Assembly (NCBI GenBank): GCA_041288095.1
Contig: JBGGMJ010000001.1
Location: 1 to 52,046 of the forward strand
Source: Myxococcota bacterium
GTDB lineage: Bacteria; Myxococcota; XYA12-FULL-58-9; JALHOP01
DNA length: 52,046 bases
Direction: 5' to 3'
The notes beneath the pieces were generated by a model, which was given only the letters and a program-made list of their open reading frames with translations, was not told where the DNA came from and ran no database searches. Below, piece after piece: positions 5,759-38,730 of the stretch. The position numbers and the translations under genes are program-made. Each line of letters opens with the position of its first letter. Position 1 is the first letter of the stretch.

Positions 5759-5784
5759 ATCGGCTCGGAAAGCCGTGAAGTTGC
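5759..5784 (-). promoter_or_regulatory. Candidate alternative-sigma promoter GCAAC-N15-GCCGAT upstream of the DHH gene
   Basis: Minus strand reads GCAAC ttcacggctttccga GCCGAT; ATG at 5748 lies 10 nt downstream. The motif recurs at four other intergenic sites. Confidence 0.6.
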
Positions 5785-5852
5785 CTGATTTTACTGGGTT
5801 TGACCCCGCGGGTTGCCGAACGGGCACCGGGGGAACTAGAAGGCATGCCGAC

Positions 5853-7934
5853 ATGACCTCCCGCACCCTCCTGACCGCCGCCCTGCCCTATGCCAACGGC
5901 AGCCTCCACTTGGGGCACCTCGTCGAATACTGCCAGGCGGACATGTACATCCGGGCCCTCAAGCGGCTCGGCCGCGACGCCCTCTATATCTGCGCCGACG
6001 ACACCCACGGCACGCCCATCGAGCTCAACGCGCAGCGTCAGGGCATCGAGCCCATCGCCCTGGTGACGCGCTACCACGAGGAGCACAAGCGCGATTTCGC
6101 CCGCTTCGACGTCGTCTTCGACAACTTCGGGCTCACGCACTCGGAGACCAACCGCAAGGTGGTCGAGGACATCTACGCGACGCTCGGCAAGAAGGGCTTG
6201 CTCGAAGACCGTGAGATGGACGGCATCTGGTGCGAGGTCGACAAGCGCTTCCTCCCCGACCGTTTCATTCGCGGTACCTGCCCTGTGTGCGCTTCAGCGG
6301 ACCAATACGGTGACGTCTGCGAGGTTTGCGGCTCGACGTACACGCCGCAGGAGCTCAAGGCGCCGCGCTGCGCTCTCTGCGGCACGACGCCGGTCGTGAA
6401 GAAGACGACCCATGTCTTCTTCAAGATCAGCCGCGAGGACATGGTCGCCTTCCTACGCAAGTGGATCGACTCCGGCACCTTGCAGTCCGACGTAGCGAAC
6501 TACGTGCGCAACTGGGTCGACGGCGGCTTGAAGGACTGGTGCATCACCCGCGACGGGCCGTACTTCGGCTTTTCGGTCCCGGACAAGCCGGGCAAGTTCT
6601 TCTACGTCTGGCTGGACGCGCCCATCGGCTACATCGCCTCGTCCGTCGAGTGGGGCGAGCGCCACGGCGTGTCGTTCGACGAGCTCTGGCGCGGCAACAA
6701 GACGCGCATCGAGCATCTCATCGGCAAGGACATCGTCTACTTCCACACGCTCTTCTGGCCGGCGGTGCTGCACGCCGCCGACCTCACCCTGCCCTCGAAG
6801 GTGCACGTGCACGGCATGCTCACCATCGACGGCGAGAAGATGTCGAAGAGCCGAGGCACCTTCATCAATGCCGCGACCTTCGCCGATCACGTCGATCCGC
6901 AGGCCCTTCGCTACTACTACGCCTGCAAATACGGCGCCGCGAGCGACGACCTCGACCTCTCGTTCGACGACTTCGTGCTGCGCGTCAATGGCGAGCTGGT
7001 CAACAAGCACGCCAATCTCTTCAGCCGCTGCACGCAGTTCCTGACGCAGAAGCTCGAGGGCAAGCTCGGTGACTTGCCCTTCGACGCCAAGGACGCACAG
7101 GCCGAGCCCACGGGCGACGGCTCGCTGCTCGATCAGGCGCGCCGAGTGGTCCAGGCGGCGCGTAAGACCGAGCAGTTCTTCGCGAACCGCGAGCTCGGCC
7201 AAGCCATGCGCGAGCTGTCCGCCATCGCGGATATCGGCAACGAGTACATGCAGTCGGCGAAGCCTTGGGATCAGCTCAAGTCCGACCCCGAGAAGGCGCG
7301 AGAGACCTGCACCTTCGCCGCCAACGTCTGCCACGCTCTGGCCATGTATCTCTGGCCGGTGGTGCCGCGCTTCTCCGAAGCCGGCGCGGCGCTTCTGGGC
7401 TCGAAGATCGATCGCATGAGCAGCGAGCTGCTCTTCGCCGAGCGCAAGCGCGCCATCGGTCCGCAACAGAGACTGTTCGAACGCATCGATAAAGCGCAAG
7501 TCGAGAGGGTCGTGGAGGCCTCGAAGGAATCACTGACGCCGAAGGAGACGCCGAAGAAAGGTCTCGCCGCGGTTGCCGCGACCAAGATCGAGGTCGCTCC
7601 TCTCAAAGCGACCATCGAATACGGCGACTTCGAAAAGCTCGACCTGCGCGTCGGTCTCGTCACCGCGGCCGAGCGCGTGCCGAAGAGCAAGAAGCTGCTC
7701 AAGCTCGTGGTGGACCTCGGCGAAGACAAGCCGCGACAGATCGTCGCCGGTCTCGGCGCGGTGTACGAGCCGGAGATGCTCGTCGCCACACGCGTCGTCG
7801 TCGTCGCCAATCTCGCGCCCGCCAAGCTCATGGGCATCGAGAGCCAAGGCATGGTGCTCGCCGGCGGCGAAGGTGAATCGTTGTCGGTGCTGCGCGTCGA
7901 CCGTGATCTGCCGCCGGGCAGCGGCGTTCGCTGA
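5853..7934 (+). CDS. metG: Methionine--tRNA ligase with C-terminal tRNA-binding OB domain
   Basis: TAALPYANGSLHLGH (HIGH), Zn knuckles, YVWLDAPIGY, KMSKS, and a C-terminal KLDLRVG...NLAPAKLMGIESQGM domain. Confidence 0.97.
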   Translation: MTSRTLLTAALPYANGSLHLGHLVEYCQADMYIRALKRLGRDALYICADDTHGTPIELNAQRQGIEPIALVTRYHEEHKRDFARFDVVFDNFGLTHSETNRKVVEDIYATLGKKGLLEDREMDGIWCEVDKRFLPDRFIRGTCPVCASADQYGDVCEVCGSTYTPQELKAPRCALCGTTPVVKKTTHVFFKISREDMVAFLRKWIDSGTLQSDVANYVRNWVDGGLKDWCITRDGPYFGFSVPDKPGKFFYVWLDAPIGYIASSVEWGERHGVSFDELWRGNKTRIEHLIGKDIVYFHTLFWPAVLHAADLTLPSKVHVHGMLTIDGEKMSKSRGTFINAATFADHVDPQALRYYYACKYGAASDDLDLSFDDFVLRVNGELVNKHANLFSRCTQFLTQKLEGKLGDLPFDAKDAQAEPTGDGSLLDQARRVVQAARKTEQFFANRELGQAMRELSAIADIGNEYMQSAKPWDQLKSDPEKARETCTFAANVCHALAMYLWPVVPRFSEAGAALLGSKIDRMSSELLFAERKRAIGPQQRLFERIDKAQVERVVEASKESLTPKETPKKGLAAVAATKIEVAPLKATIEYGDFEKLDLRVGLVTAAERVPKSKKLLKLVVDLGEDKPRQIVAGLGAVYEPEMLVATRVVVVANLAPAKLMGIESQGMVLAGGEGESLSVLRVDRDLPPGSGVR

Positions 7935-7939
7935 CCCGC

Positions 7940-8653
7940 ATGACCGAGCCGGTAACCATCGACTTCGACGGCGCCTCGCTCCCCGAGCTGGTGGCGCTGA
8001 TGCACAGCGAGCACGCGCAGGCGCGCGCCGACGCGGCCACGGCCATCGGTGATCGCTTGCGAACCCGCGAGCTCGACGTCATGCCGCCGGACATTCACGA
8101 GCTCATCGTCGACCTCCTCGGTGACCCGGTGCCGATCGTCCGCTTCGAAGCCGCGATGACGCTCGCCGAGGCGCACGACCAACGCGGCACGGATTTGCTC
8201 GTGGAAGCGGCGGCGCACCGCACCTTCCGCCTCGATGCCGTCCGCGCGCTTGGAGCAATGGGCGACCAGCGAGCCGCGCCGACGCTCGCCGCCATGATGG
8301 GGAAGCTCCTCATGCCCTGGGCAGACCGGCTGCAGGCCGCCGCCGCGCTCTGCGCGCTGCGTGATACGCGCGGCGCGGAGTATCTCGCGAAGAAGCTCAC
8401 GAGCCGCCGCAAGGCCGAGCGAGCCGCTGCGATTCACTTCATCGGCGAGTCGCGCCACCCGAGGGCGCGCGAGCTGCTCACGCCCATGGTCGACGACGCC
8501 AAGGAGCCGATGCGCGACGTCGCGGCGCGGGCGCTCGGCATCTTGGGCGACCCGGCCGCAACGCCGGTGCTCGAAGCGGCGCGTGCGGGCGCCGACGAGG
8601 CGCTGCGCGCCGACATCGACCAAGCGCTGGCGCAGCTCAAGGCGGCCTCATGA
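7940..8653 (+). CDS. HEAT/PBS-lyase-like repeat protein
   Basis: Repeated helical units of the form VR.xAA.ALG..GD..A; 5 bp after metG. Confidence 0.85.
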   Translation: MTEPVTIDFDGASLPELVALMHSEHAQARADAATAIGDRLRTRELDVMPPDIHELIVDLLGDPVPIVRFEAAMTLAEAHDQRGTDLLVEAAAHRTFRLDAVRALGAMGDQRAAPTLAAMMGKLLMPWADRLQAAAALCALRDTRGAEYLAKKLTSRRKAERAAAIHFIGESRHPRARELLTPMVDDAKEPMRDVAARALGILGDPAATPVLEAARAGADEALRADIDQALAQLKAAS

Positions 8654-9033
8654 CCTTCGCCGTTCACCACCTCGCCGTCGTCGTTCGCGACCTCCCGCGC
8701 GCTGAGCGCTTCTATGTGGGCCTCCTCGGGCTGCGCGTCAGCCAACGTTGGCAAGACGACGCCGGCGCGGCGCGCTCGTTCTGGTGCGAGCTCGAGCACG
8801 GGGCGTTCCTCGCCGTCGAGAAGGCGGCCGACAACTTGCCCGCCAAAGCAGACAAGACGGTTGGCTGGCATTGCTTGGCGCTCGGGATCACTCCCGACCA
8901 GCGCAAGCCGCTCGCCGAAAAGCTCCTGACCGCCGGACACCCAACGGTGCGCGAGACGGCGTACACGTTCTACGTGCGCGATCCGGACAACAACTTGGTC
9001 GGCTTCTCCACCTATCCTCAGAAGAGCGCGTAG
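8650..9033 (+). CDS. VOC/glyoxalase family protein
   Basis: VHHLAVVVRDL..AERFY..LLG and FYVRDPDNN motifs; ATGA overlap with the upstream gene. Confidence 0.9.
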   Translation: MTFAVHHLAVVVRDLPRAERFYVGLLGLRVSQRWQDDAGAARSFWCELEHGAFLAVEKAADNLPAKADKTVGWHCLALGITPDQRKPLAEKLLTAGHPTVRETAYTFYVRDPDNNLVGFSTYPQKSA

Positions 9034-9200
9034 ACGAACGGCGCCACGTAGGCGAGGCCGCCGGTGAGCACCAAGAGCAAGCCCGCGGCGAGCAGCACCA
9101 AGACGAGCGGAATGAGCACGAAGCTCTGCGAGCGCGCGAAGTGCCCTAGCACCTCGCGAATGGTCTGCAGGCGGTTGCCGAGTCGCCGGAGCCCGCTCAC
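9018..9200 (-). CDS. DUF5989-like small membrane protein
   Basis: 60 aa with a hydrophobic segment ending VAPFVYALF, the hallmark of the small proteins that follow NodU/SxtI-type carbamoyltransferases; GTGA overlap. Confidence 0.8.
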   Translation of the reverse strand: MSGLRRLGNRLQTIREVLGHFARSQSFVLIPLVLVLLAAGLLLVLTGGLAYVAPFVYALF

Positions 9201-10894
9201 GCGGGCCTCGTGAGCATCACATCGTCGATGAACATGCGGTCGACGCCGTGGCGCACGAAGAAGGAGAGCGCGTCGGTGGCGGTCGCGACCATGGGCTCAC
9301 CGGGCCCATTGAGCGACGTGTTCAAGATGACCGGAATGTCGCCGCGCTGCTTCAAGTGCCCGAGCACGGCGCCGAGCTGGGTCGACGGTCCGACGGTTTG
9401 GACGCGCGCGGTGCCGTCCACGTGGGTCACCGCCGGCAACGCTTCGGGCTTCAAGACCTCGGCAACCGTCGTCATGAACGGCGTCATCGCGTTCGCGCCG
9501 CCGGCGAACCACGCGGCGGCGTCGGACTCGAGCACGACTGGCGCGAACGGGCGGAAAGGCTCGCGCTTCTTCACGGCGCGGTTCAGGCGCTCGCGCATCT
9601 CGACATCGTCGGCGCGGGCCAAAATGGAACGAAAGCCGAGGGCGCGTGGACCCCACTCGCAGCGCCCCTGGACACAGGCGACGATCTCGCGCGCGGCAAT
9701 TGCGTCTGCTATCGCGGACGCGACATCCACGACCGGCAACGCGATGAGCCCGAGCGCCCGAGCGTGCGTCGCGATAGGCGCACCCGCGACGGCTACGCCC
9801 AGATCGGCGCCCGCGAGCGGCGCGGGACGCGGCGAGCCCCGGGTCAGCGCCCCGAGAATGGCGGCGCCCAAGGCACCGCCAGCGTCGCCCGCCGCCGGCT
9901 GCACGAAGACGTTCGCGAAGCCGGCTTCACGAGCGATCCGCCGGTTGGCGACGGCGTTGAGCGCGACGCCGCCGGCAAGGCAAAGCGCGTCTTCTCCCGT
10001 GCGCCGCTTCGCTTCCGTGGCGATGGCGATGAGCGCGTCTTCGAGAGCGTCTTGGGCGCTGCGGGCAATGTCGGCGTAAGCACGGTCGCGCTCGGTCGTG
10101 AGGTCCCAGCGCTCGAACGGCGAGCGCGCCGGCCCCAAGAGGCCGATGAGCTTCTGGCCGTAGCCGAGCTCGGTGCGCGTGAAGCGGTCGAAGTAGTCGA
10201 GCCCGAGCTCGTAGCTGCCGTCGCTCGCGACCTTGAGGAGGCGCGCCATCTCTTCGCGACGCGCCGGCTTCCCGTACGCCGCGAGCCCCATCACCTTGTA
10301 CTCGCCATCGTTCACCTCGAAGCCGAGGTAGGCGGTGATGGCCGCGTAAAAGAGACCGAGCGAATGCGGGTAGTCGATGTGCGTGAGCTCGCGCAGCCCT
10401 TCGGCGTCGGCGTGCCACAAGCTGGTGCACGCCTCCTCGCCAACCGCGTCCACCACCATCACGGCGGCGCGCTCGAATGGGCTGCAATAGACTGCGCTCG
10501 CCGCGTGCGCCTGGTGATGGCGCACCAGCTCGATACGGGCGCGGGGGATGCTCAAGGCGTCCGCCAAAGCGTCCATAACCCAGATCTTGCCGCCGAGCTG
10601 CGAGCCCAGTGCTCTCGGGAACTGCCGCAGCGCCCGCGGAAAAGCGCGCAGGGTGCCGACCAAGACGCGTTCGAGCTTGGCGTACGGATTCTCGTAGAAG
10701 ACCACGGCGTCGAGGTCACCGGCGCTGATCCCACCCAGCCGCAAGACCGCATCCATGGCGCGTTTCGGCAGCGAAGCGTCGTTCTTGATGCGCGACAACC
10801 GCTCCTCGTGTTGCGCCGCGACGATGCGGCCGTCGATGACGAGGGCGGCGGCGGCGTCGTGATAGTGCGCCGAGACCCCGAGGACCGCGGTCAT
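9197..10894 (-). CDS. Carbamoyltransferase (NodU/CmcH/TobZ family)
   Basis: HYHDAAAAL, EERLSRIK, HHQAHAAS, HSLGLFY, GEYKVMGLAAYG, LAGGVALN, EWGPRALG.RS, KKREPFRPFAP, HVDGTARVQTV and NTSLN motifs. Confidence 0.96.
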   Translation of the reverse strand: MTAVLGVSAHYHDAAAALVIDGRIVAAQHEERLSRIKNDASLPKRAMDAVLRLGGISAGDLDAVVFYENPYAKLERVLVGTLRAFPRALRQFPRALGSQLGGKIWVMDALADALSIPRARIELVRHHQAHAASAVYCSPFERAAVMVVDAVGEEACTSLWHADAEGLRELTHIDYPHSLGLFYAAITAYLGFEVNDGEYKVMGLAAYGKPARREEMARLLKVASDGSYELGLDYFDRFTRTELGYGQKLIGLLGPARSPFERWDLTTERDRAYADIARSAQDALEDALIAIATEAKRRTGEDALCLAGGVALNAVANRRIAREAGFANVFVQPAAGDAGGALGAAILGALTRGSPRPAPLAGADLGVAVAGAPIATHARALGLIALPVVDVASAIADAIAAREIVACVQGRCEWGPRALGFRSILARADDVEMRERLNRAVKKREPFRPFAPVVLESDAAAWFAGGANAMTPFMTTVAEVLKPEALPAVTHVDGTARVQTVGPSTQLGAVLGHLKQRGDIPVILNTSLNGPGEPMVATATDALSFFVRHGVDRMFIDDVMLTRPA

Positions 10895-11565
10895 CGCCAA
10901 CCGCTGGCGCGCGGAGCACGTGCTCGCATGACCAGCGCGAACGGCGCGATGACCAGGTACAGGAGCCACATGGTCGCCGTGAACAGGTGATTCGAGAGAG
11001 CACGGCCGTGGCGCAGCCAGGTGCGCTTGAGCTCCCAGCGGACCGAGGCGCGCAGTGCTCTCGCGGCCGCCGCCTCACCACCGCTCAAGCGGACGAGCAG
11101 CTCGCGGGTATAGAGCTCGTGCCGGCGCTCGTCTTCCAAGACGCGCGCGAACACCGAGGCGGTCTTGGCGTCATCATGCGCTTCGAAGTAGCGCTGATAG
11201 ACCTCGAACTGTGTGCGGGCGCGGCATTAGCCACGATGCACGAAGGCGAGGAAAGCCACCTCGCCGAGCATGCCGTATAGATGGTCGACGTCGGCGCGCG
11301 GTGCGCCGTAGGACGGCATTCCGCGCTTGCTCTGCAGCTCGCCGGCGCGCCGCGCGAACATCACCGCGTGGCGCGACTCGTCCATGGCGTGCTGCAGGTA
11401 CAGCGCGGCGCGATCGGGGTCGCCCGCGAGCTGCGCGGCCATCGACAGGTCGATGGCGCTCCCCTGCTCGGCCAGCGCGAAGCCGTGGAGCTTCCCGGCC
11501 GTGTGCCCGAGCGAACGCCAGACAACGAGGCTCGTCAGGCGAGCGAAGGTGCCGCGCAGACTCAT
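10891..11565 (-). pseudogene. Ferritin-like di-iron protein with C-terminal SxtJ-like membrane segment, interrupted by an in-frame TAA at 11227-11229
   Basis: ORF-track pieces 11227..11598 and 10891..11154 share one frame. Reading through gives ..LAEQGS..MDESRH..VHRG*CRARTQFEVY..LEDERRHELYT..LLYLVIAPFALVMR. ATGA overlaps occur at both ends. Confidence 0.8.
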
Positions 11566-13754
11566 GTTCCGCCCAAGCAGACGCGGGTCTCCGGCCATTC
11601 ACCGCACTGCCCCGAGCCGCAGGCCACCTCGTCGCTGCACAGTGGAAAACACTGAGACGTGCCACCTGCGAGCGTCGTACCCTCCGGACACGTCGGCCGG
11701 CTACTCGGGAAGCCCTGCGCGCACTCGAGGAGCTTCGCGCATTGGCCACGGTCGAGATGCTCCATCTTGTAGGTGGCGAAGCACTCCGGCCGCGTCGAGC
11801 CATAAACGTCGAGACAATCCGCCGAGCCGGTGAAGGCGCGGTGACACTGACACAGCACCTGCTCCTCGTGACTGACCGCGCTCGCGGGGGTAGCGCCCGC
11901 CGTCGGCGCCGCGAGCGTGCCGGCGATGACACCGTCCGCGCCGCGTGTTGCCTCGAGACGCTGCGCGCGGTCGGCCCACGTAAGGTCGATCACGAGCTTC
12001 TTGCCCTCGAGCACCGGCGCGACGACGCTCATGACCTCGCCGTTGGCGTTGACGTAGCTATCTCCTGGACCTTCGACGACTTTGACGAAGCGCGGCGTGT
12101 TGCCTGGACCTTTGCGGCATTGGACGCGCAGCCACTCGTCGATTTGCACGGTCTCGCAACCGGCCTTTCCGCTGCCGCGGACGATGATCTCGGGAGTACG
12201 TCGAAACTCCTCGGCGCTGGGAACGCGGCTGCGGCCGACACTGAGCGCACCCGAGCTGGGCGCGAGCGGCGCGGGCTTCGCGAGCACGGCGGCGATTGCA
12301 TCCGCCACGGCGGCGTGACCTTTCGGCGTCATGTGAATATCGCGGTCGAGAAACGCGCCGGGCTCGGCGGCTTTCAAGGTCGGTAGCGCATCGAGCGTAC
12401 GCATACCGCGCTGCGCCGCCGCGGCGATGAGATGCTCGGTCAACACCGCGAGATCACCGACATCATGCTGCTCGAGCCCGTATTTGGCCCACTCGGCGGC
12501 GTCGACCTGGAGGTCGATCGGCAGCACCACCAACATCGGGTCGCAAGCCGGCCGACGGCACAAGCGCGCCAGCTCGTCGAGCTGGGCATCGAGCGGCGAG
12601 GCGACCCGTTTCATGTCCAGAGGCTCGCGACGCAGATCACCGAGCTTCTTCAGCGTCGCCATGTAGTGCGCCTTGGCTTCCTGAAGCTCGGCGATGTCGG
12701 TGGTGCCGCTGCGCCGCTGCAGGGCTTCGCGGTACTCGACGCTCTTGCGGACGACGTCCGGGGTCACCTTGCTGTCTTCTTCTTGGGCGCGACGCGTGGC
12801 CTGGCCGGCGCGCACGAGCTGATAGAACGTGTAGTCACCGCGACGCGCCGACTCACTGAAGAACGCGGGCGCGACGATGTCACCGGGATTGCCGCGCGCG
12901 GCGATGAGCTTCTTCTCGACGTCTTCGGGGTCGGCCTCTTCCTTGTTGGCGCTCCAGAACACCAGCGCCAGGTCGAGACGGCGCGCCGCATCGTCCGCGG
13001 CGACGAGGCTCTCTTGATATGCCGCGGCCCCTACCTTGTCCGGGACCACGGTCAAATCGGGTGCCTTGGTGAGCCCGGCGAGCTCCTTCCACGAGCCTTC
13101 CGACGGCAGCGCCCCGATGGTCGCGGCGGTGGTCTCATGGGTGAGGCGGCGCACCGCGTACACCAGGTGCGACTTGCGCATGATCAGATCGCGCAACGGA
13201 AACTCGGCCACGTCCGCTGGAGCGGTCTCGATACGCACGGCCCAGCCGTCCCAGACGCGGTGACGCTCGCGGTTGGGACGGGCGATCTCGAACAGGTCGT
13301 TGACCATGTTGATGGTCAGAATCAACGTCTTCGGCTTCTGCTTCTCCACCACCTCGCGGGCGATCTTCATGAACTCGGGTGGGCCCAGAGTCGGCACGCC
13401 GACGTTGAGCACGGGCCGTCCAGTGTGCAGACCCAGCTGCGCCGCGAAGCTTTCGTTCTCTTCGACGCCCAGCCCGAAGACTTGCGAATCACCCACTACG
13501 GCGATGGCGTTCGTGGCGTCGTCGGGCCAGTCGGCGCCACGGTAGCCCGCGGAGTTGATACGAACGCTGCTCGTCGGATTGCCGCCAAAACGTACGCGCT
13601 GGCTCGCCCCCGGACGCAGCCGCACCCCGAGCTCCGCGTCTTCGGCATAGAGATTGAGATGCGGAAAAGCTCCGTCATCCCGGAACCAGAAAACTGCTTC
13701 AGCAACCACGAGGCCCACGGTGAGGCCCACGAGAACCTGCAGCAGACGACGCAT
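11562..13754 (-). CDS. Membrane-anchored SGNH/GDSL hydrolase-like protein with helical insertion and Cys-rich C-terminus
   Basis: N-terminal TM helix; INSAGYRG; VGDSQVFG (block I); VLNVGVP (block II); NDL (block III); DIHMTPKGH (block V). Confidence 0.85.
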   Translation of the reverse strand: MRRLLQVLVGLTVGLVVAEAVFWFRDDGAFPHLNLYAEDAELGVRLRPGASQRVRFGGNPTSSVRINSAGYRGADWPDDATNAIAVVGDSQVFGLGVEENESFAAQLGLHTGRPVLNVGVPTLGPPEFMKIAREVVEKQKPKTLILTINMVNDLFEIARPNRERHRVWDGWAVRIETAPADVAEFPLRDLIMRKSHLVYAVRRLTHETTAATIGALPSEGSWKELAGLTKAPDLTVVPDKVGAAAYQESLVAADDAARRLDLALVFWSANKEEADPEDVEKKLIAARGNPGDIVAPAFFSESARRGDYTFYQLVRAGQATRRAQEEDSKVTPDVVRKSVEYREALQRRSGTTDIAELQEAKAHYMATLKKLGDLRREPLDMKRVASPLDAQLDELARLCRRPACDPMLVVLPIDLQVDAAEWAKYGLEQHDVGDLAVLTEHLIAAAAQRGMRTLDALPTLKAAEPGAFLDRDIHMTPKGHAAVADAIAAVLAKPAPLAPSSGALSVGRSRVPSAEEFRRTPEIIVRGSGKAGCETVQIDEWLRVQCRKGPGNTPRFVKVVEGPGDSYVNANGEVMSVVAPVLEGKKLVIDLTWADRAQRLEATRGADGVIAGTLAAPTAGATPASAVSHEEQVLCQCHRAFTGSADCLDVYGSTRPECFATYKMEHLDRGQCAKLLECAQGFPSSRPTCPEGTTLAGGTSQCFPLCSDEVACGSGQCGEWPETRVCLGGT

Positions 13755-13831
13755 CTTGCGAGGATAGCCTGTCGGGTTACCCACCGACTCGGATTTTTGT
13801 AAAGCGCCGCGTCAGGGCCTACACTCTTGCG

Positions 13832-14275
13832 ATGGGCGTCGGCAGCGCGGAGCAATTCGAGCGCGGCAAGCGCGCGATGGCGGACGACCGCCTCCTGGAA
13901 GCGCTCGCCGCCTTCGAATCGGCGTACCGCGCCGAGCCCAGCAATGCCGAGTACCAGTCGTTCTACGGGCTACTGCATGCGCTCGAGCGCGGCCGTACCC
14001 GCGAGGGGGCGGTCCTGGCGCGTGACGCTGCCGAGCGCGCACCCGAGCTCGCGAGCAGTCACTTGAACCTCGCCAAGGTCCTATTGGCTTGCAAAGACAA
14101 GGCCGGAGCCGTCGCGGCGCTGAAGCATGGGCTAGCACACCACCCGGGCAACGAGGCCCTGCTGGCCGAGATCAAGAAGCTCGGAGTGCGCAAGCCACCC
14201 GTATTCAAGAAGCTCCCGCGCGACCATCCGCTCAACAAGTACGCCGGCAAGATCGCGCACTGGTTCCGTCGCTGA
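13832..14275 (+). CDS. Tetratricopeptide repeat protein
   Basis: TPR-like helices (A..AFE.AY..EP.N, HLNLAKV..A); C-terminal KLGVRKPPVF..LPRDHPLNKY. Confidence 0.8.
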   Translation: MGVGSAEQFERGKRAMADDRLLEALAAFESAYRAEPSNAEYQSFYGLLHALERGRTREGAVLARDAAERAPELASSHLNLAKVLLACKDKAGAVAALKHGLAHHPGNEALLAEIKKLGVRKPPVFKKLPRDHPLNKYAGKIAHWFRR

Positions 14276-14276
14276 G

Positions 14277-14750
14277 CTAGCGGTGGCGGCGGCTCAAGCG
14301 ACGACGCTTGATGCCGTCGTTCGTGGGACTCTCGTTTTCACCCTGCAACTGCGGATCGACGGCGCTGGTGAGCGTGCGATCCTGCTCGGCGACGGCCGGC
14401 TGCCCGGCGGCGACCTCGCGGACATCGGCGCGCATCAGCAAAACGACGACGATGGCGACCAGGAGCATGACCGCCTGCGCGATGACGACACCCATGAGCA
14501 GACCCTGGCGCTTGCGCGTACGTTCCGCTATAGCGTGCACCCCGTCGACGCGCTCGGCGACCCGCAGCGACGCGCTCGGGTCGCTGGTCGCCATCAGGTT
14601 CTCCATGCGGAAGACGGCTTCGCGGCTTTGCTCGACGAGCTGGCGCACCTCGGCCAGGCTCTCTTGCATCTGCTCGCGGACGTCCTCGACGGCGCCCATC
14701 AGGGCTTCGAGGCGCACGTCTACGGGTGGGCTGCCTGAATCGTCGGCCAT
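14277..14750 (-). CDS. Hypothetical coiled-coil protein with one TM helix
   Basis: Heptad-like N-terminal half and hydrophobic LLMGVVIAQAVMLLVAIVVVLLM; directly downstream of hemH on the same strand. Confidence 0.7.
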   Translation of the reverse strand: MADDSGSPPVDVRLEALMGAVEDVREQMQESLAEVRQLVEQSREAVFRMENLMATSDPSASLRVAERVDGVHAIAERTRKRQGLLMGVVIAQAVMLLVAIVVVLLMRADVREVAAGQPAVAEQDRTLTSAVDPQLQGENESPTNDGIKRRRLSRRHR

Positions 14751-18518: not shown

Positions 18519-19403
18519 TCAGATCCGGGTGATGGTCGTCGTGATCTGGGTCTGACGCTCCGCGTGCTCGTTCAAGATCTTCAACGCGAGCTTCATGCCT
18601 TCTTTGGCTTCGTCGTAGTTCTGCTTGGCGTTCTCGATGCCCTGCTCGAAGACCTCTTGCATCATCTGGTGACGCATACCCTTCACCTTGAGCTGGTCGG
18701 CTTCGCGCTGTGGGCCGGCGGTCTTGTTGAGGTACTGGCCGGTGGCGCTCACCAACGAGTTCGCCGCCTGGCTCATGGCGACGCCCATGTTCGGGTTGCC
18801 GGCGGCTTCGCCGTACTTGTAGCCAGCGTACGATGCGGCCGCGGCGCCGATGCTCATGGTCAGATTGAAGCCGGCGGAACGGCGCTCGGCGCTGTTCTGA
18901 TCCTCGACCGTGCTCATCTCGGCCCGCTTCGAATCGACCTTGCCCTGCTGCTGCGCATTGCGCAGGCGCTTCGCCAGATCCATGTCGGTCTGCGAGGTGC
19001 GCGCCATCTCGGTCATGGCTTCCCACATCAACGCGGCATCACCGTCGTAAGTGCGCTCGAGAAAGTCGCCGAGCGCGGATCGCTCGGAGCGCCCGAGAAC
19101 ATGCACACCCGCCGAGGGCAGCGGCGGGGCGTTATCGAGGATGGCGCGAAGCTCGGGGTCTTCCGTTCGCGTGCCGATGCGTTCGGTGGCGTCGACGGTC
19201 GCCGTGGGCCGTATGCCGACGCTCGCGGTACCGGATGTGCCGAGACCGCGCACCGCACCACTGCCGGTCGTCACGCGCACTGGAGTGCCGCTCGTCGCCT
19301 CAGGGTCCTGGGCAGCCGGGTCCAAGGTGCCGGCACGCCGCGCGGGGGCTTGTGGGTCAACGGAGGTGTTCCGGAGTCCCCGGTCTCGAATATCGACGGA
19401 CAT
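18519..19403 (-). CDS. Hypothetical protein with type III translocator (SctB/YopD-like) architecture
   Basis: Low-complexity S/T/P/G N-terminus without a signal peptide, a Q/R/K-rich helical block, a small-residue hydrophobic segment (FNLTMSIGAAAASYAG) and an amphipathic C-terminal helix (MKLALKILNEHAERQTQITTTITRI). The gene looks real; the family call is inference. Confidence 0.55.
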   Translation of the reverse strand: MSVDIRDRGLRNTSVDPQAPARRAGTLDPAAQDPEATSGTPVRVTTGSGAVRGLGTSGTASVGIRPTATVDATERIGTRTEDPELRAILDNAPPLPSAGVHVLGRSERSALGDFLERTYDGDAALMWEAMTEMARTSQTDMDLAKRLRNAQQQGKVDSKRAEMSTVEDQNSAERRSAGFNLTMSIGAAAASYAGYKYGEAAGNPNMGVAMSQAANSLVSATGQYLNKTAGPQREADQLKVKGMRHQMMQEVFEQGIENAKQNYDEAKEGMKLALKILNEHAERQTQITTTITRI

Positions 19404-19503: not shown

Positions 19504-19528
19504 ACAACAGGCCCTGCGACCTGCCGAT
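19504..19528 (+). promoter_or_regulatory. Candidate promoter ACAAC-N14-GCCGAT
   Basis: ACAAC aggccctgcgacct GCCGAT, intergenic and oriented toward the CDS at 19637. Confidence 0.45.
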
Positions 19529-19636
19529 GATGGGAGCACGGTCGTATCGGCCATCAGCCCCAGCTGCGTCTTTCGAGCAGTTATTCGGGCTGGGACGGGG
19601 CATCGGGCAATGCGTAACACGGCGAGCGAGAGCGGC

Positions 19637-19957
19637 ATGTGCGAGCTTTGTTGCAAGCTCATCAACTCGGAAGACGATGTTGTGGGCGTGGATCTGGTCG
19701 CGGAGCAAATGGCATCGACGGGGACCTCGAAGGCTCACCGTCACTGCGCCTCGCTCTCGGTCAGTCTTGGCTCGTTGGCCGAGGCCCGGCAGCTCCTGGC
19801 GCCGCGCACCAGCCGTCAGTTGCTCTCACCCGAGCAGCAGCCCGCACGCCGCGAAGCGCGCACCATCACCATTCGGCCGGCCCGGGTGGTCATCAACACG
19901 ATGCACACCGGCGCTCTGTTCACGCCCGGTCAGCGTACCGCCACCCGCCCGGCGTAA
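19637..19957 (+). CDS. Small hypothetical protein with CxxC...HxxC (possible Zn site)
   Basis: MCELCC...KAHRHC; GAGAG upstream of the ATG; third codon positions are mostly G/C. Confidence 0.55.
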   Translation: MCELCCKLINSEDDVVGVDLVAEQMASTGTSKAHRHCASLSVSLGSLAEARQLLAPRTSRQLLSPEQQPARREARTITIRPARVVINTMHTGALFTPGQRTATRPA

Positions 19958-21680: not shown

Positions 21681-22646
21681 TCATGTCGATCCGCGCCGGC
21701 GGCTGAAATCGAAGATCTTGAAGAGGCCGTGACGGATCTCCACCGGCTCGGCGGGGTAGACGGTGTCCACGAAAACGTTGATGGCCTTCGGGAAGGAGTC
21801 CTTGAGGACCACACAGTTCGCGGGCGCGTTGTCGAAAGTCGCGACGACCGGACCCCAGGCCAACAAGGTGGAGCGCACGCTCTTCTTGAACGCGGCATCG
21901 TCGTCGTCTTTGTGCGGCTTCAGGAAGACCTTCACGCGCGACGAGAGGCGCGGCAGACCACTCTTGTTGATCGCGGCGCGTGTGCCCTTCCCCATCCGTG
22001 CTTCGTCACGGCCGGTCAGGTAGGCGATGCTCGCGCCGAGGTCGTGGAGCTTCTTCACGTATTCGAGGGCGCCGTACTGCAAGGGGTCGTCCTGGCAATA
22101 TTCGTTCGAGAAGAAGCGCTCGTTCCAATACTTGTCGAAGTCGGCGAGCGCCTTCTTCACCCGCGGGGCCCCGAGGTCGAGACCCGCGACCTTCGAGAAG
22201 GTGTCCTTGTTGGTGTAGGCGAGCTCCTCTGCGCGGACCGTCTCGAGGCTCCGGCGGATCTCCCAGTGCAGCGACGGGCGGTCGTCGAGCCACTCGCGCA
22301 AGATCCGCATGGTACGGACCTGATTGCTCTTGAACACGGTGTCGTCGAGGTCGAACACCACGACCGGCCGCTCGATGCTGGTGTCGCTGCCACGGTGCTT
22401 GTAGCGGTCCATCGCGCGCTCGACCGCCGCGATGACCATGTCGAGCGTCTGGTACTGGTTCGCCGCCTGAAAGCGGCACACCTGGACCCAGGTGGCGGCG
22501 GGAACCCGCGGTTGCTCGCGGGGACGCCAGTCGATGCCGATGCGATCGAAGCCCCCGCGCTGCATCGAGCGATGAGCTTGGCTGGCCACCGCCATGACCA
22601 GCGAAGGATGCGAAAACGCGCGCGCACTTGGGGAAGCGACCCGCAT
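21681..22646 (-). CDS. HAD-superfamily acid phosphatase-like protein with N-terminal extension
   Basis: VVFDLDDT (motif I), YLTGR (II), FKK (III) and FDN (IV); about 90 aa of extra N-terminus with no hydrophobic signal. Confidence 0.82.
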   Translation of the reverse strand: MRVASPSARAFSHPSLVMAVASQAHRSMQRGGFDRIGIDWRPREQPRVPAATWVQVCRFQAANQYQTLDMVIAAVERAMDRYKHRGSDTSIERPVVVFDLDDTVFKSNQVRTMRILREWLDDRPSLHWEIRRSLETVRAEELAYTNKDTFSKVAGLDLGAPRVKKALADFDKYWNERFFSNEYCQDDPLQYGALEYVKKLHDLGASIAYLTGRDEARMGKGTRAAINKSGLPRLSSRVKVFLKPHKDDDDAAFKKSVRSTLLAWGPVVATFDNAPANCVVLKDSFPKAINVFVDTVYPAEPVEIRHGLFKIFDFSRRRGST

Positions 22647-26598: not shown

Positions 26599-29500
26599 TT
26601 AGGCGGATTTGTACAGCGCCGCGGCCAAATGCCGCGGCAACAGCAGCGGCTGCTTCACCACGCGGGCGCGGTCGATCGGCTGCTCCACGGGCACCATCAC
26701 CGCGGTATAAGCGCTGGTCGAGCGCACGATATGACGATGCTCGAGCTCGCCGCGAATCTTCACGCTGCCACCGCCCGCCGGCATGACGTAGAACGACACG
26801 TCCGCGAAGGCGGTCACGAGCTTCGAGGAGAGCTTGGGGTCGAGCCGCAGGCGAACGCCGCGTTCGAACGGCTCCGCGTCGAAGTAGAGCGGGATCTGGA
26901 GACCGACCGCGCTCGTGAAGGTCTCCTTGATCTTGCCCTTCTCGGGGACGAAGCTCGCCATGAACAGCTCTTTGCGGCGTCCGTCCTCACCGATGACATA
27001 GCGATTCCAGTGCGTCACGCCCTGGCGATCGCGCAGCAACTCGGTTTCGACGTTGAACTCGCCCGAGGTCACCACCTCCGTCCCCAGGACCGCGCCACCC
27101 AGGTGCGCGCTGATGTTCGTGGCGACGACGTTCATCGTCTGCGCCATGAAGTCGAAGAGATTCGTCGGGGAGGGGACGCCCGCCACGACCTCGATTCGCG
27201 ACTGGCCGCGATAGCGGTCGGGATGCTTGTAATAGGCAACGACGCTCGGGTCGACCTGCGCCAGCTCCTCCGGCTCGAGCACCTCGCGAAGATCGAGGAG
27301 CTTGTCGGCGATGGTGTGCACGGGAATGTGCTTGCCGTCGGGGCCACGCCCGTTGAGCACGCCGCCGCGGAAAAGCGTGCGCGCGATACCGGACGTCGTC
27401 ACCAAACCCTGGAGCATGCGCTTGGTCAGCATGCGGTCGGTCGGCAGGCCGCGCGCGTCGAAATCGGGCTGCGAGCCGGTGAGGGTGTCGGTGAAGAGCT
27501 TGGCGACGGAGCGCAGCTCCTCGCCCAAGAACGGAATGGTGCCTGACGCGAACAGCGTCTCACGGAAGTGATCGAAGGCGCGCACCAGTGCTTCTTCGTA
27601 GGGCAGCTTGTCGGCGACGGCTTGATCGTAGACGTCGCGGCCGTGCACCATGGCGATGAAATAGGTGGCCAGCGGCGCCAGCGCCGGGTCGCGGATGGCG
27701 TCACGCCAGAAGAGCTGGGCTTGCTTGCGGAACTCCGGTGAGTCGAGCTGCGCGAAGTCTTCCATGTGCGCTTCGAACCAGAGACGTTCGATGGTCTCCT
27801 TCGACGGCCCCAATCCGCGGCGCGCGCTCGCATGGGCGTCGACGTACACTTGCCACTTGGCCGTCTTCGGGCGGCCGAAGTTGTCGACCGGCATGATGTA
27901 GTTGGGGACCATGCCGTAGGCGGTGTGTTGGTGATAGGCGCCGGTGAGCGCCAGCATGTTGGCGCTGTACTCGAGCAGACCGTTCATCGGCGTCGGGTAT
28001 TTGCGCTGGAAGTCGTGAATCAAGTTGCTGCGCACACGGGCCTGCGCTTGCCGGACGACACCCAGCAGCTCCTTGGCCTGGAAGACGCCGTCGGTGCCAG
28101 AAACCCGGGCCGGCGCGTGAATGGGGTCGACGCGGTCGAAGTCGGAGAAGTCGAGACGGTAGCGCGGGAGCGTAAGGCCCTCGACACGGCCGCGCGGCGG
28201 CTCGGCGAAGGTCGCGCTCGCGAGCTGCTGCTTCTCGACGGTGCCCACACCCACCGGCAGCTCGAGATCGAGTGCTTGGCGCAGCTCGAGGCGCTCGGCG
28301 GGCGATATATCGACGGCGATGGCGTCCGCTTTGGCGGCCTTCGGCTGGTGACCCGTGATGAAGGTGCCGAGCATGCCCCAGAAACCGAACCACCACTCGC
28401 GCGTGAGGGGATTCCAAGGGTTCGAGCCATTGTCCATGCTGGCGCGATTCCAGATCATGCCGATGGTGCCGCGGCGGACGAGCTCGCGGGTCACCGACAG
28501 CGGATAGAAGCGCGCGACGCTGGTCGCCTTCACGCCCTGGTCGAGGTCGGCTTCGACGCTCTTCAAGGTGTTGACGTAGGCGTCGACGATGCGGCGGTGC
28601 TTCATCGGCGTCTCGGCATAGAGCTTCGCGAACTGTGGGCTCGCGACCGCGCGCTTGAAGTCGGCGATGTGCGCCCTGAAAAACGCCTCTTCGATGACTT
28701 CGCGCGGCGCGGCGCTGCGCACCGCCGCGACGTATGCCCGCCAAAGCGGACCGCGCGGCTTGCCGTCGGCGTCAATGGGGTTCGCCGACGCGTAGTCGTA
28801 GCCGATGATCGGCAGGATGTGGAACGTCTCGTTGATGGCCCAACCCGAGCAGAATGCGGAGAGCTGGCGACCGCCGGTCGAGGGATAGCGCTTGAAGAAG
28901 TCGCGCATCTGGTGCGCGACGCGGTACCCTTGCTCCTTCGTGAACGTGTAGCCCGATGGCGGCGTCGAGGGTCCCGGTGGCGGCGCCTGCAAGGCCTCGG
29001 TCCGCCAATCGGCGCGCGTCTGCTGCCACAGCGACGTGAGGCCGGCGTTGACGGTGGCGACGGTGCCGTTGATCGGACCCAACGCGAGATACTCGTCGAG
29101 CGCCGCGCGGGCGTCGGTGCTGAACGCCGCCGCATGCTGGCGGCGGAACGACTGCAGCGCCTCACGACCGTCGGTCACTGGGTCATTCAGGCGGGCGCGA
29201 TGGGCAAGCTGCCAGACCTCGTGGGTGTCGATGCGTTGATCGGCGAGGAGCTTTTCGATGAGCGCCGGAGGCAAGACCTTCGCGGGCGGCGGTGGCAAAC
29301 GAATGATGCCTTCGCGCGCCGGTACGAGCGGCAAGCCGAGCTGCTGCGCGACCAGCGTCATCAGCGGCCCGAGACCGTGCTTCTCCGCCTCTTCCTGGGC
29401 GAATTTCACCTCGCGCTTGCTCAGCTGGCCGTCGTGGATGCCGGCGAAGGCAAAGCGCCGCAGCCAAGTCACGCCGGCGAGCTGCTCGACCGCGTCGGCG

Positions 29501-29748
29501 CTGTGGAAGGCTCGCCGCACGTGACCGAGCCAGGTCTCGACCTGCTCGAGCCGCAGCGCCGGCTCCTTGCCGACGGCGATGATGTCGCGAACGCCCTGAC
29601 GCGCCAAGGCCGCGCGGTACTGCACCGGCACGTCCTTGAGGAGCACGAGCTCGCCGAGTCGCGGGTAAACCGTGGCCCGCGCGCGCAGCTGCGCGCAGAG
29701 ATGTGCCGTCACGCGGTCGACCGCGTGCAGTGTAGACAGAGCTGACAT
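26599..29748 (-). CDS. Large hypothetical protein (1049 aa) with an internally duplicated domain of about 100 aa
   Basis: Long ORF with natural composition and two aligned segments (DFFKRYP...SPQFAK and DFQRKYP...SPEFRK); no signal peptide. Confidence 0.85.
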   Translation of the reverse strand: MSALSTLHAVDRVTAHLCAQLRARATVYPRLGELVLLKDVPVQYRAALARQGVRDIIAVGKEPALRLEQVETWLGHVRRAFHSADAVEQLAGVTWLRRFAFAGIHDGQLSKREVKFAQEEAEKHGLGPLMTLVAQQLGLPLVPAREGIIRLPPPPAKVLPPALIEKLLADQRIDTHEVWQLAHRARLNDPVTDGREALQSFRRQHAAAFSTDARAALDEYLALGPINGTVATVNAGLTSLWQQTRADWRTEALQAPPPGPSTPPSGYTFTKEQGYRVAHQMRDFFKRYPSTGGRQLSAFCSGWAINETFHILPIIGYDYASANPIDADGKPRGPLWRAYVAAVRSAAPREVIEEAFFRAHIADFKRAVASPQFAKLYAETPMKHRRIVDAYVNTLKSVEADLDQGVKATSVARFYPLSVTRELVRRGTIGMIWNRASMDNGSNPWNPLTREWWFGFWGMLGTFITGHQPKAAKADAIAVDISPAERLELRQALDLELPVGVGTVEKQQLASATFAEPPRGRVEGLTLPRYRLDFSDFDRVDPIHAPARVSGTDGVFQAKELLGVVRQAQARVRSNLIHDFQRKYPTPMNGLLEYSANMLALTGAYHQHTAYGMVPNYIMPVDNFGRPKTAKWQVYVDAHASARRGLGPSKETIERLWFEAHMEDFAQLDSPEFRKQAQLFWRDAIRDPALAPLATYFIAMVHGRDVYDQAVADKLPYEEALVRAFDHFRETLFASGTIPFLGEELRSVAKLFTDTLTGSQPDFDARGLPTDRMLTKRMLQGLVTTSGIARTLFRGGVLNGRGPDGKHIPVHTIADKLLDLREVLEPEELAQVDPSVVAYYKHPDRYRGQSRIEVVAGVPSPTNLFDFMAQTMNVVATNISAHLGGAVLGTEVVTSGEFNVETELLRDRQGVTHWNRYVIGEDGRRKELFMASFVPEKGKIKETFTSAVGLQIPLYFDAEPFERGVRLRLDPKLSSKLVTAFADVSFYVMPAGGGSVKIRGELEHRHIVRSTSAYTAVMVPVEQPIDRARVVKQPLLLPRHLAAALYKSA

Positions 29749-29764: not shown

Positions 29765-29790
29765 ATCGGCAGGTCGTGCCACGGGGTTGC
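29765..29790 (-). promoter_or_regulatory. Candidate alternative-sigma promoter GCAAC-N15-GCCGAT upstream of the 1049-aa gene
   Basis: Minus strand reads GCAAC cccgtggcacgacct GCCGAT, 16 nt before ATG at 29748. Confidence 0.6.
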
Positions 29791-37191: not shown

Positions 37192-37198
37192 CTCGGCC

Positions 37199-38674
37199 CT
37201 AGCTCAACATTTCGATCAGGGTCGCCACCATCACGCCGGTACCCCCCTTGCTCATGGCCCCACTATCCTTCTTGCTCCAGATCGGGCCAGCGATGTCGAG
37301 ATGGCACCATGGCACGTCGCCGACGAACTCCGAGAGGAATAGCGCCGCGGTGATGGCTCCGCCAAAGCGGTCACCGGTGTTCTTGGTGTCGGCGATGTCG
37401 CTCTTGAGCTGCTCCTTGAGCAACGGATTGAGCGGCATGCGCCAGGCGTCCTCGCCGGCACGGCGCGAGGCATCCAGCAGCCGGTCGGCCATGTCGTCGT
37501 CGTTCGAGAAGACGCCCGTGGTGTAAGGCCCGAGCGCCACCACGCAAGCGCCGGTAAGGGTCGCGAGGTCGATGATGCGCTTGGGCTTCAGGCTCTTCGC
37601 GTAGTGGATCGCGTCCGCTAAAACGAGCCTTCCTTCGGCGTCGGTGTTGTTGATCTCGACGGTGCGACCCATCGCGGATTTGATGACGTCGCCGTTACGA
37701 AACGCGGTGCCGCTCGGCATGTTCTCGGCCATGGCGAGCACCCCGTGCAGCTCGATGGGCAGCTCGAGCGCAGCGGCGGCGATCATTGTCGCCAGCACCG
37801 TGGCGGCGCCGCCCATGTCGTCTTTCATCTCGTCCATCGAGCTCGGCGGCTTGATGCACAGACCGCCGGAGTCGAAGGTGACGCCTTTGCCGACCAGCAC
37901 CGTCGGGCCTTTCTTGGCCTTCTTCGGCGTGTACGACAGGTGCACCAGCCGCGGTTTCCTGTCGCTGCCGTTACCGACCGCGAGCAGCAGGTTCATGTCC
38001 ATTTTAGCGAGCTGGGCTTCGTCGTAGATCTTGGCGTCGATGCCGTGCTTCTTGGCTTCGGCGGCGGCGAGCTTCGCGAAGGTCGCGGGATAGAGCTCTT
38101 GCGGCGGCTCGTTCACGAGGTCGCGCGCCAGTGCAACGGCTTCGCTGACCACCAACCCGCGGGCGACGGCGCGCTTGTCGACGCCGTGTTTGCTGTCCGC
38201 CGAAGCGATGGCGATGGTCTGCACCGTTTGCTTGCGACCCTTGTCGGAGAGGTAACGCGTGAAGCGGTAGGCACCGAGGGCCGCGCCGCGCGCGATCAAG
38301 CCGTGCGCGTCGATGCCGGTCGGCAGCTCCTTCGGCAGCACCAGAGTCACGTGTTTGGCGCTGACCGCGTTACCGAGGCGGGTCGTCTGTCCGCCCAGGG
38401 CCATGAGCCCCGAAGGTCCAAGGCTCTTCTTGGCGCCGAGGCCGAGGAGCGCGACCCGCTTGGCCCGGAGCTTCCCCATGGTGACCATTTGCAGCCGCTG
38501 CTCGGATTTGCCCTTGAACTCCTCGTCCTCGATGGCTGTCACGATGGCACCCCCGAGGGCGCGATCGAGGGCCTTCATGAGGGAGCCCTTGCCGGGGTCA
38601 TCGGAGAAAACAGCGATTGCCAACAGGTCTGTAGCGGCCGAAAGCGGCTCGCCGTTGAAGGGGACGACGTGCAT
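37199..38674 (-). CDS. pepA: Leucyl aminopeptidase (M17)
   Basis: GKGVTFDSGG, MKDDMGG, NTDAEGRL, DLATLTGA and HLDIAG motifs. Confidence 0.96.
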   Translation of the reverse strand: MHVVPFNGEPLSAATDLLAIAVFSDDPGKGSLMKALDRALGGAIVTAIEDEEFKGKSEQRLQMVTMGKLRAKRVALLGLGAKKSLGPSGLMALGGQTTRLGNAVSAKHVTLVLPKELPTGIDAHGLIARGAALGAYRFTRYLSDKGRKQTVQTIAIASADSKHGVDKRAVARGLVVSEAVALARDLVNEPPQELYPATFAKLAAAEAKKHGIDAKIYDEAQLAKMDMNLLLAVGNGSDRKPRLVHLSYTPKKAKKGPTVLVGKGVTFDSGGLCIKPPSSMDEMKDDMGGAATVLATMIAAAALELPIELHGVLAMAENMPSGTAFRNGDVIKSAMGRTVEINNTDAEGRLVLADAIHYAKSLKPKRIIDLATLTGACVVALGPYTTGVFSNDDDMADRLLDASRRAGEDAWRMPLNPLLKEQLKSDIADTKNTGDRFGGAITAALFLSEFVGDVPWCHLDIAGPIWSKKDSGAMSKGGTGVMVATLIEMLS

Positions 38675-38705
38675 GCGCGCATGTAACGGCTCGCGCCAGC
38701 GAAAC

Positions 38706-38730
38706 GCAACATTCGCCGTAAGTTGCCGAT
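38706..38730 (+). promoter_or_regulatory. Candidate alternative-sigma promoter GCAAC-N14-GCCGAT upstream of the C39-like gene
   Basis: GCAAC attcgccgtaagtt GCCGAT(AT), 27 nt before ATG at 38758; AGGGG Shine-Dalgarno lies in between. Confidence 0.6.

Follow-up and report, generated by a model that had tools for sequence, protein, structure and literature searches.

A sigma-28-like promoter with a GCAAC −35 box precedes about 330 genes of an uncultured myxococcote and is linked to a sigma factor of its type III secretion cluster

The stretch of DNA considered here, which we call the window, is contig C1 (52,046 nucleotides) of the 5.85-Mb assembly of an uncultured Myxococcota bacterium (genome G000; 66% GC, 90% complete). 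It carries three exact copies of the bipartite motif GCAAC-N14/15-GCCGAT, where 0.28 would be expected and where none of 100 shuffles gave three, and these precede genes for a DHH-family phosphoesterase, a 1049-residue orphan and a 284-residue protein (Table 1). An original prediction, made from the letters of the window, had listed these copies together with two weaker ones as the mark of a dispersed set of orphan hydrolase genes that share one alternative sigma factor and whose products may leave by a type III-like route. All three exact copies were found where it had placed them, and it was right that housekeeping genes lack the motif, since no site ahead of those in the window reaches 12 bits, the threshold that we used for these genes and for type III secretion (T3SS) loci. 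The scattered set is also real, but it comprises about 330 genes of this genome (333 were counted) and not five.

Table 1. Motif sites and associated genes of the window
Feature	Position	Strand	Remarks
Promoter GCAAC-N15-GCCGAT before DHH gene	5759..5784	−	Exact; 18.8 bits; kept in 3/3 congeners (16.4–21.9 bits)
DHH-family phosphoesterase, candidate cargo	4399..5748	−	PF01368 at 114–217 of 449 residues; N-terminal extension of ~110 aa; no signal peptide
294-aa SctB/SseD-like paralogue	18519..19403	−	50% identity over 174 aa to C203:38242-39285; no full motif upstream
Promoter ACAAC-N14-GCCGAT	19504..19528	+	19.4 bits; kept in G001 and G002 (2/2 examined)
115-aa open reading frame behind the 19504 site	19610..19957	+	Weak coding score (15.5); first 70 residues near-identical in G002
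HAD/acid-phosphatase-like protein, candidate cargo	21681..22646	−	PF03767 and PF00702 from residue 95; N-terminal extension
Degenerate candidate promoter GAAAC-N15-CGCGATAA	22656..22681	−	9 nt before HAD ATG; <7 bits, uncertain
1049-aa orphan, candidate cargo	26599..29748	−	No signal peptide; no Pfam match at E 0.05
Promoter GCAAC-N15-GCCGAT	29765..29790	−	Exact; 16.3 bits; kept in 3/3 congeners
Promoter GCAAC-N14-GCCGATA	38706..38730	+	Exact; 23.2 bits; kept in 3 congeners
284-aa protein, possible C39-like cysteine peptidase, candidate cargo	38758..39612	+	No signal peptide

The weaker copy at 19504 proved to be a high-scoring and conserved site, and the open reading frame behind it is only weakly coding and has no Pfam match. 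The other weaker copy does lie just ahead of the HAD start codon but scores poorly; it is plausible as a promoter and was left out of the count. The ATG at 5748 is probably the start of the DHH gene; it follows the −10 box by 10 nt, and the three congeners (G001, G002 and G003) have the same arrangement. Orthologues of the DHH protein (40–67% identity) and of the 1049-residue protein (66–87%) were found only within the genus among the five genomes tried, and the promoter at 38706 also precedes a 28%-identical homologue in another family. The N-terminal extensions that had been proposed are present in the DHH and HAD proteins, but the label "C39-like" is weakly backed: the 284-residue protein matches PDB entry 9jdd at E 0.032 and has no Pfam match, with Cys123 and His220 invariant in five homologues.

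To scan the genome we used our own gene prediction (5022 genes) and a matrix built from intergenic matches of G000, cGCAAC-N14/15-(G)CCGATA(A/C), with a threshold of at least 14 bits. There were 417 matches, 347 of them in the intergenic DNA that makes up only about 7.5% of the genome, and intergenic matches numbered 336 against 1–8 in ten shuffles of that DNA, which bears out the upstream enrichment that had been expected. Because the matrix was trained on the same genome, independent evidence comes from the tests of spacer length, of orientation and of other genomes. The exact boxes occur 66 times at a spacer of 14 and 29 times at 15, and 1–18 times at any other spacer from 8 to 23; the corresponding intergenic matrix matches are 244 and 106, against 2–11 at other spacers. 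Sites between co-directional genes point toward the downstream gene in 171 cases and away from it in six, and an ATG follows the −10 box at 7–13 nt in 70 of the 333 target genes. At all ten orthologous loci of the window DHH, 1049-residue and 284-residue genes both boxes are kept, with a spacer length that drifts. Spacer preference, one-sided orientation, the contrast with shuffled DNA, ATG spacing and conservation at orthologous loci together make it almost certain that GCAAC-N14/15-(G)CCGATA is a promoter. Its −10 box in the matrix from the 347 intergenic sites, (G)CCGATA, is of the sigma-28 type, and its −35 box is GCAAC and not the TAAAG or TTAAG of sigma-28 promoters. A canonical TAAAG-type set is absent from G000, where TAAA or TAAAG combines with CCGATA 0–1 times per spacer. 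CCGATA occurs 418 times in intergenic DNA, and in 232 of these cases a GCAAC-like box is missing from the expected position; some of the 232 lie in tandem GCCGATA heptamer repeats, and others may be −10-only promoters.

The export apparatus that a type III route would call for is present in G000, structural genes of it carry the motif, and a FliA-like sigma gene lies in its cluster. The cluster on contig C92 holds sctJ, sctL, sctN, sctO, a FliK-like sctP, sctQ, a FliO-like gene, sctR, sctS and sctT, with sctV on C31 and sctU on C41. SctV, SctR, SctS and SctQ exceed the cut-offs of their sct families, SctN, SctU, SctJ and SctL have an sct family as best match below cut-off, and SctT and SctO best match FliR and FliJ, also below cut-off; between them (SctRSTUV, N, L, O, Q and J) the export gate, ATPase complex and ring of a non-flagellar T3SS are represented. 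The order in relatives is contiguous: 111-aa gene, 185-aa gene, TPR gene, 159-aa gene, sigma, 163-aa gene, sctJ, FliG-like gene, sctL, sctN, sctO, sctP and sctQ. An efflux operon separates sigma from sctJ in G000, and inserts in the T3SS cluster of this genus (C92:24471-35154, 6713-9981 and 10570-16749) comprise this RND efflux operon, a Kup transporter, a GNAT gene and several orphans.

Two small genes of this order are candidates for exported structural parts. The 163-residue product encoded before sctJ is a candidate for the rod protein SctI, matching PF17001 at E 0.008, below cut-off. The 185-residue protein is needle-like by its position, its C-terminal helix and an Atlas lead and not by a firm match: its Atlas match scores 0.90 to a cluster in which 11% of members carry PF09392, one of its 25 orthologues matches the HrpA pilin at E 0.0027, and its structural model has a mean predicted local distance difference test (pLDDT) value of 52 with a C-terminal helix of 58 residues. 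Fold searches gave no specific match for it, and among its 778 homologues the 120 listed had no Pfam assignment and no informative name.

Two FliA-like sigma factors are encoded in G000, at C92:35188-36072 and C127:21759-22571, both below the family cut-off. The first lies in the T3SS cluster, between the needle-like gene and sctI-sctJ, and of 39 related loci 34 have it next to the SctI-like gene. Every one of the 21 orthologues aligned has SKSWxSRxH in region 4.2, against SRVCQLH in the FlgM-linked C127 paralogue. A site of at least 12 bits lies upstream of the SctI-like gene in 21 of 34 cases and upstream of the needle-like gene in 16 of 24; such sites are absent upstream of sigma itself (0 of 35) and nearly so for other neighbours (0 of 14, 0 of 20 and 2 of 33); the motif also precedes the needle-like or rod gene in three distant genomes whose sigma is only 37–45% identical. 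Motif and sigma occur together as well. In a sample of 90 Myxococcota genomes at least 90% complete (G005 excluded), the median number of strict matches is nine (1.75 per Mb) among the 51 that have the sigma, against one (0.22 per Mb) among the 38 without it. Within family f12 the counts are 5–53 with the sigma against 0, 1 and 1 without, and within f17 they are 3–8 against 0, 1 and 1; counts of 113–136 are confined to this genus. The motif is present in G010 and G015, where the T3SS sigma is the only FliA-like match and no flagellin was found. G005 was dropped as an apparent case of motif without sigma, because a contig break cuts its sigma gene.

Synteny, footprint and co-occurrence tie the promoter to the C92 FliA-like sigma, which is very probably the factor that reads it. 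This upholds the idea of a single alternative sigma whose promoters combine the −10 box of sigma-28 with an unusual −35 box, and it counts against a factor of the extracytoplasmic function (ECF) type; an ECF sigma was dropped as reader, the −10 box and the co-occurrence both pointing to the FliA paralogue. A sigma-28-like promoter with a new −35 box, linked to a sigma encoded with a T3SS, is what is new here. Neither promoter nor sigma is described in the literature found by full-text search, although subscription papers and supplements, notably that of the primary paper on the T3SS* of Myxococcus xanthus, may mention a sigma.

A flagellar regulon was rejected, with no flagellin or FlhA found in the 90%-complete G000. 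The congeners do have a flagellar cluster (G001:C2, G002:C2 and G003:C59) with flagellin, FlhA, FlhB and a third, ordinary FliA; G000 yielded no such cluster, which may reflect loss or an assembly gap. The C127 sigma, with close orthologues in 6 of 40 relatives, forms with a FlgM-like gene a stand-alone pair without flagellar genes (C127:21759-22853), and a TCAAG-type, sigma-28-like site precedes the flgM-like gene. Five genomes of family f16 of 1.3–2.4 Mb (G028, G037, G060, G064 and G092) keep the T3SS sigma, and SctV where it was searched for, with few motif sites; they are possibly host-associated T3SS users.

The only FlgM match in G000 adjoins the C127 sigma (PF04316, over cut-off), and there is none beside the C92 sigma. 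Directly upstream of the latter is the 159-residue gene, whose product has a type III-like N-terminus (81st percentile of the classifier described below). A predicted complex between this protein and the sigma was weakly supported, at 0.53 against 0.24 for the best control, with at least 46% of contacts agreeing between runs and a partner pLDDT of at least 64; passes at or below 0.60 comprised 18 of 157 solved complexes and both of the two mismatches, among 215, that passed, and are more often wrong than right. The 159-residue protein may as a lead be the anti-sigma of the C92 sigma, and by its position it could equally be SctH/YopR-like. Its nearest Atlas family is YopR/PscH at 0.77, likewise a lead, and a fold search with it gave nothing specific (best Z 6.4, rmsd [root-mean-square deviation] 4.3, 94 residues aligned).

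A translocon-like operon lies on the minus strand at C203:36063-45069 and encodes a 393-residue tip-like protein, a double SycD/LcrH, an SseC-family protein, its paralogue and an SseD-like protein, which places SctE and an SctB-like protein together with a SycD chaperone. SycD (TIGR02552, 130.7 against a cut-off of 104.8) and SseC (PF04888, 42.4 against 30.2) are firm assignments, and the SctB-like protein (C203:38242-39285) matches SseD at E 2.6e-5, below cut-off; its paralogue in the window is a second copy that stands alone. SseC matches were found in 12 of 22 genomes, eight of them over cut-off, and the tip-like, SycD and SctE genes recur in the same order in several other families of the order. 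The tip-like protein has no PDB, Pfam or relevant NCBIfam match. More LcrH/SctY-like TPR genes are found at C181:30486-36441, C41:139-5144, C210:20756-23494, C188:8081-8926 and C46:1720-2649; they adjoin proteins with type III-like N-termini and with C-termini like the needle-like family or SseC, and are probably chaperone–substrate modules.

The 333 marked genes encode a distinctive set of proteins. Signal-peptide-like N-termini are found in 25 of them (7.5%) against 583 of 1892 controls (31%), and three or more transmembrane segments in one against 93. Serine, threonine and proline make up 0.255 of residues 2–30 against 0.196 in controls, and 0.247 against 0.183 where the start is supported by a ribosome-binding site (n = 145). 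A Pfam scan, which covered 216 of the 333 motif genes (60–2000 aa) and 80 of 496 neighbours, with three window members scanned separately, gave a match for 63 marked proteins and 61 neighbours, so that orphans are 71% against 24%. About 20 of the annotated proteins are peptidases (two M4, three S8, M14, M28, M1, M64, two S9, trypsin, a calpain-like C2, M74 and VanY), and others are three lytic transglycosylases, two serpins, a phospholipase D, lipases, two nucleases, a Fic protein, an adenosine deaminase, a GH97 and four flavin amine oxidases. Many of these enzyme families are normally exported by Sec, and here the thermolysins, subtilases, carboxypeptidases, trypsin, nuclease, lipase and lytic transglycosylases occur without a signal peptide and with starts rich in S, T, P and A. 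The scattered orphan non-Sec hydrolases of the original prediction are therefore found in part: the set is mostly orphan and mostly non-Sec, but it includes signal-peptide-like proteins and some ordinary non-hydrolase genes.

The N-terminal bias is confined to the first 40–60 residues or so, and the codons concerned keep a coding-type GC content at third positions (0.73). Marked proteins extend at least 25 residues beyond an in-genome paralogue in 27 of 54 cases, against 45 of 151 controls (p 0.012), and acidic-residue-free first 12 positions were not enriched among non-signal proteins (0.32 against 0.30). A classifier trained on the marked set reached an area under the curve (AUC) of 0.77 at the N-terminus and 0.54 at the C-terminus. 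Although trained on motif genes only, it ranked the held-out tip-like protein, SctE, SctE-like protein and window SctB-like protein at percentiles 98.5, 99, 94 and 96, with the C203 SctB-like protein at 81; the window HAD protein lies at the 95th. The set as a whole, and not each protein, thus lacks a Sec signal and has the S/T/P-rich, unstructured N-terminus of type III substrates. On this statistical evidence, it is reasonably likely that most marked products are T3SS cargo.

We favour, on balance, a reading in which the sigma of the T3SS cluster reads the motif and the T3SS delivers most of the encoded proteins to prey or host. The FliA-like sigma would be a fixed part of the non-flagellar T3SS gene cluster of Myxococcota, would have kept the sigma-28 −10 specificity (GCCGATA), and with its altered region 4.2 helix would presumably read GCAAC in place of TAAAG or TTAAG. 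As at late (class 3) flagellar promoters, it would transcribe neither the export-gate genes nor itself but the exported building blocks, namely the SctI-like rod and the needle-like subunit, and scattered cargo genes. This set would have grown in this genus to more than 300 genes, among them four or five of the window, most of whose products would leave through the T3SS, guided by an unstructured N-terminal signal rich in S, T and P, and would serve as enzymes that digest or manipulate the cells of prey or host. The peptidoglycan hydrolases suggest bacterial prey, and the translocon, serpins and calpain-like protease suggest eukaryotic cells. The route across the outer membrane may be a borrowed secretin or a Tad pilus, the latter having been proposed for M. 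xanthus in the passages available of PMC12075869. A bolder form, which we consider only tentatively, is an injection system that depends on contact, has needle, tip and translocon and lacks a secretin of its own. Late control would have stayed as in the flagellum, with the sigma held by a secreted anti-sigma, perhaps the 159-residue protein, and 250–300 effectors would be injected. Such a repertoire would be several times the usual size for a T3SS.

A number of results weigh against the favoured reading. The C92 sigma does not reach the cut-off of its best family, TIGR02479 (163.7 against 189.6 bits). No SctC match over the TIGR02516 cut-off was found in nine of nine genomes, in which other secretins are present, the best secretin reaching 142 bits against a cut-off of 238. 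Upstream of the translocon-like operon four congeners have GCAAC-N14 followed by CGCCAT, CGCGAT, CTCGAT or CACCAT, at 1.4 bits or less, with no clear motif site in five other genomes, and ahead of the SctB-like gene of the window there is just a −10 box (GCCGATA at about 19545–19551, minus strand). The split of motif counts by sigma is not clean within families f16, f19 and f6, and 10 of the 38 genomes without a detected sigma have 6–15 matches (seven of f10, with G016, G023 and G031); related genomes in these counts are not independent. Signal-peptide and transmembrane assignments come from our own hydrophobicity heuristics on our own gene calls, and when marked proteins were paired with paralogues, loss of the signal peptide did not reach significance (10 against 5, p 0.30). 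The classifier is modest: the rod, the SctP-like protein and the 704-residue operon protein rank at percentiles 32, 32 and 41, and ten non-secreted controls at 10–87, three of them at 79–87. N-termini of low complexity are also not peculiar to type III export.

Part of the evidence would also suit a set read by the same sigma as a general regulon of a life stage, attack or starvation phase, as in Bdellovibrio, with T3SS parts as a few of its members and most products staying inside or leaving otherwise. Usual T3SS repertoires run from a few to about 70 effectors, and 333 cargo proteins are far above this. The set also includes, besides the 25 signal-peptide-like proteins, a DEAD-box helicase, an aminotransferase, a pilin-like gene, an ABC permease fusion and kinases; orphan genes often have low-complexity ends, the classifier still reaching an AUC of 0.64 at residues 100–130; and the available passages of PMC3627812 report that FliA of Bdellovibrio marks 92 of 140 attack-phase promoters of mixed functions. 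Such a regulon accounts poorly for a bias that peaks at the N-terminus and is not seen at the C-terminus, for normally Sec-exported families without signal peptides, for a single polytopic membrane protein among the 333 and no transcription-factor family among the 63 annotated, and for distant genomes in which sites are few and one of them is nevertheless found ahead of the needle-like or rod gene. We regard it as rather unlikely.

The other two alternatives concern the reader of the motif. The C127 sigma, alone or with the T3SS sigma, has a genuine anti-sigma neighbour, and the highest motif counts (54–136) fall in genomes with a close orthologue of it (G001–G003 and G005). It nevertheless has a region 4.2 like that of ordinary FliA, the motif extends well beyond its few close orthologues, G015 and G025 have 40 and 44 matches without one, and the site before its own flgM gene is not of the GCAAC type, all of which makes it an improbable reader. 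AAC in a −35 box is ECF-like, and the genome has 36 sigma-70 region-2 matches, most of them ECF-sized, so that the motif could be an ECF promoter or a transcription-factor binding site unrelated to FliA. We consider this very improbable, since one-sided orientation, two spacers and a peak of ATG codons 9–13 nt behind the box fit a sigma-28 promoter, motif counts track the T3SS sigma, and the −10 box is of the sigma-28 type, with CCGATA as in Bdellovibrio (PMC3627812, in the passages available).

Two known regulons come closest. The FliA promoter of Bdellovibrio bacteriovorus, TTAAG-N16-CCGATA, is read by the flagellar FliA and, as far as the passages available of PMC3627812 describe it, belongs to a large predator regulon with proteases and many uncharacterised genes; it has the same −10 box, but here the −35 box is GCAAC and the reader would be a FliA paralogue in a non-flagellar T3SS cluster, separate from the flagellar FliA of the congeners. 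Sigma-28 of Campylobacter has co-expressed Fed/FspA proteins (available passages of PMC9856085). There, as at flagellar class 3 promoters, a type III exporter has its late exported components, and its non-structural cargo too, made under a sigma-28-type factor. It is this logic of late exported parts, governed in flagella by FliA and FlgM, that we infer for the T3SS sigma. The present case differs in that the exporter is non-flagellar, the −35 box is changed, no FlgM lies beside the sigma and the genes number hundreds against a handful. By its score in TIGR02479 and its −35 box the sigma falls outside FliA, though its regulon would work like flagellar class 3.

The T3SS* of M. xanthus (MXAN_2434-2464) has been published as lacking needle and translocon, with effectors unknown (PMC10433427, PMC12075869 and PMC12428579; see also PMC10849154, PMC10196010 and PMC3459982, and PMC11509652 for Bradymonadia, all in the passages available). 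Compared by gene make-up, it shares SctRSTUV, N, L, Q, J and I, LcrH-like chaperones and the lack of a dedicated secretin with the present system, which unlike the published one has needle-like and tip-like genes as well as an operon of the SseC family. The passages of PMC10433427, PMC12075869 and PMC3459982 seen here mention no sigma for it, and one supplement of PMC10196010 has no entries for MXAN_2434-2439. A 9-Mb relative (G029) has a long locus of T3SS*-like make-up; its SctV is 62% identical, and sigma, needle-like gene and motif are all present there. In the bolder form considered above, the label "needle-less" may be wrong for myxobacterial T3SS, since other myxobacteria have sigma, needle-like gene and promoter in their long T3SS locus.

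Gene order can also be set beside the Ysc type, which runs sctE-F-G-H-I-J-K-L and lcrV-lcrH-yopB-yopD. The order small protein, needle-like, TPR, 159-aa, (sigma), sctI, sctJ, FliG-like, sctL, N, O, P, Q, R, S and T resembles the former, and tip-like, SycD, SctE and SctB-like the latter, with the F, G, H and tip assignments resting on position and weak similarity; unlike Ysc, a sigma is inserted, FliO-like and FliG-like genes are retained and SctC was not found. The retained sigma-28-type regulator and FliG-like and FliO-like genes, together with a translocon-like operon, would bear on the origin of the injectisome from the flagellum, Myxo systems having been placed at the base of the non-flagellar T3SS tree in the available passages of PMC3459982. 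In the favoured reading, a duplicated sigma-28 would be insulated from the flagellar sigma by a change of the −35 box alone.

A promoter consensus tied to the sigma of the cluster gives a ranked, testable list of candidate cargo in Myxococcota with this sigma (52 of 91 sampled), which takes in hundreds of orphan proteins and would let the question of what the T3SS of myxobacteria exports be tested directly. If the injection reading is true, the promoter would point to the prey-lysis effectors of myxobacteria. Two extra ClpX-like ATPases with N-terminal extensions are under the motif (C22:68985-70457 and C149:28751-30190), and so is a Flp/Tad-like prepilin gene (C23:7871-8122, minus strand), a possible link to Tad-type predation pili.

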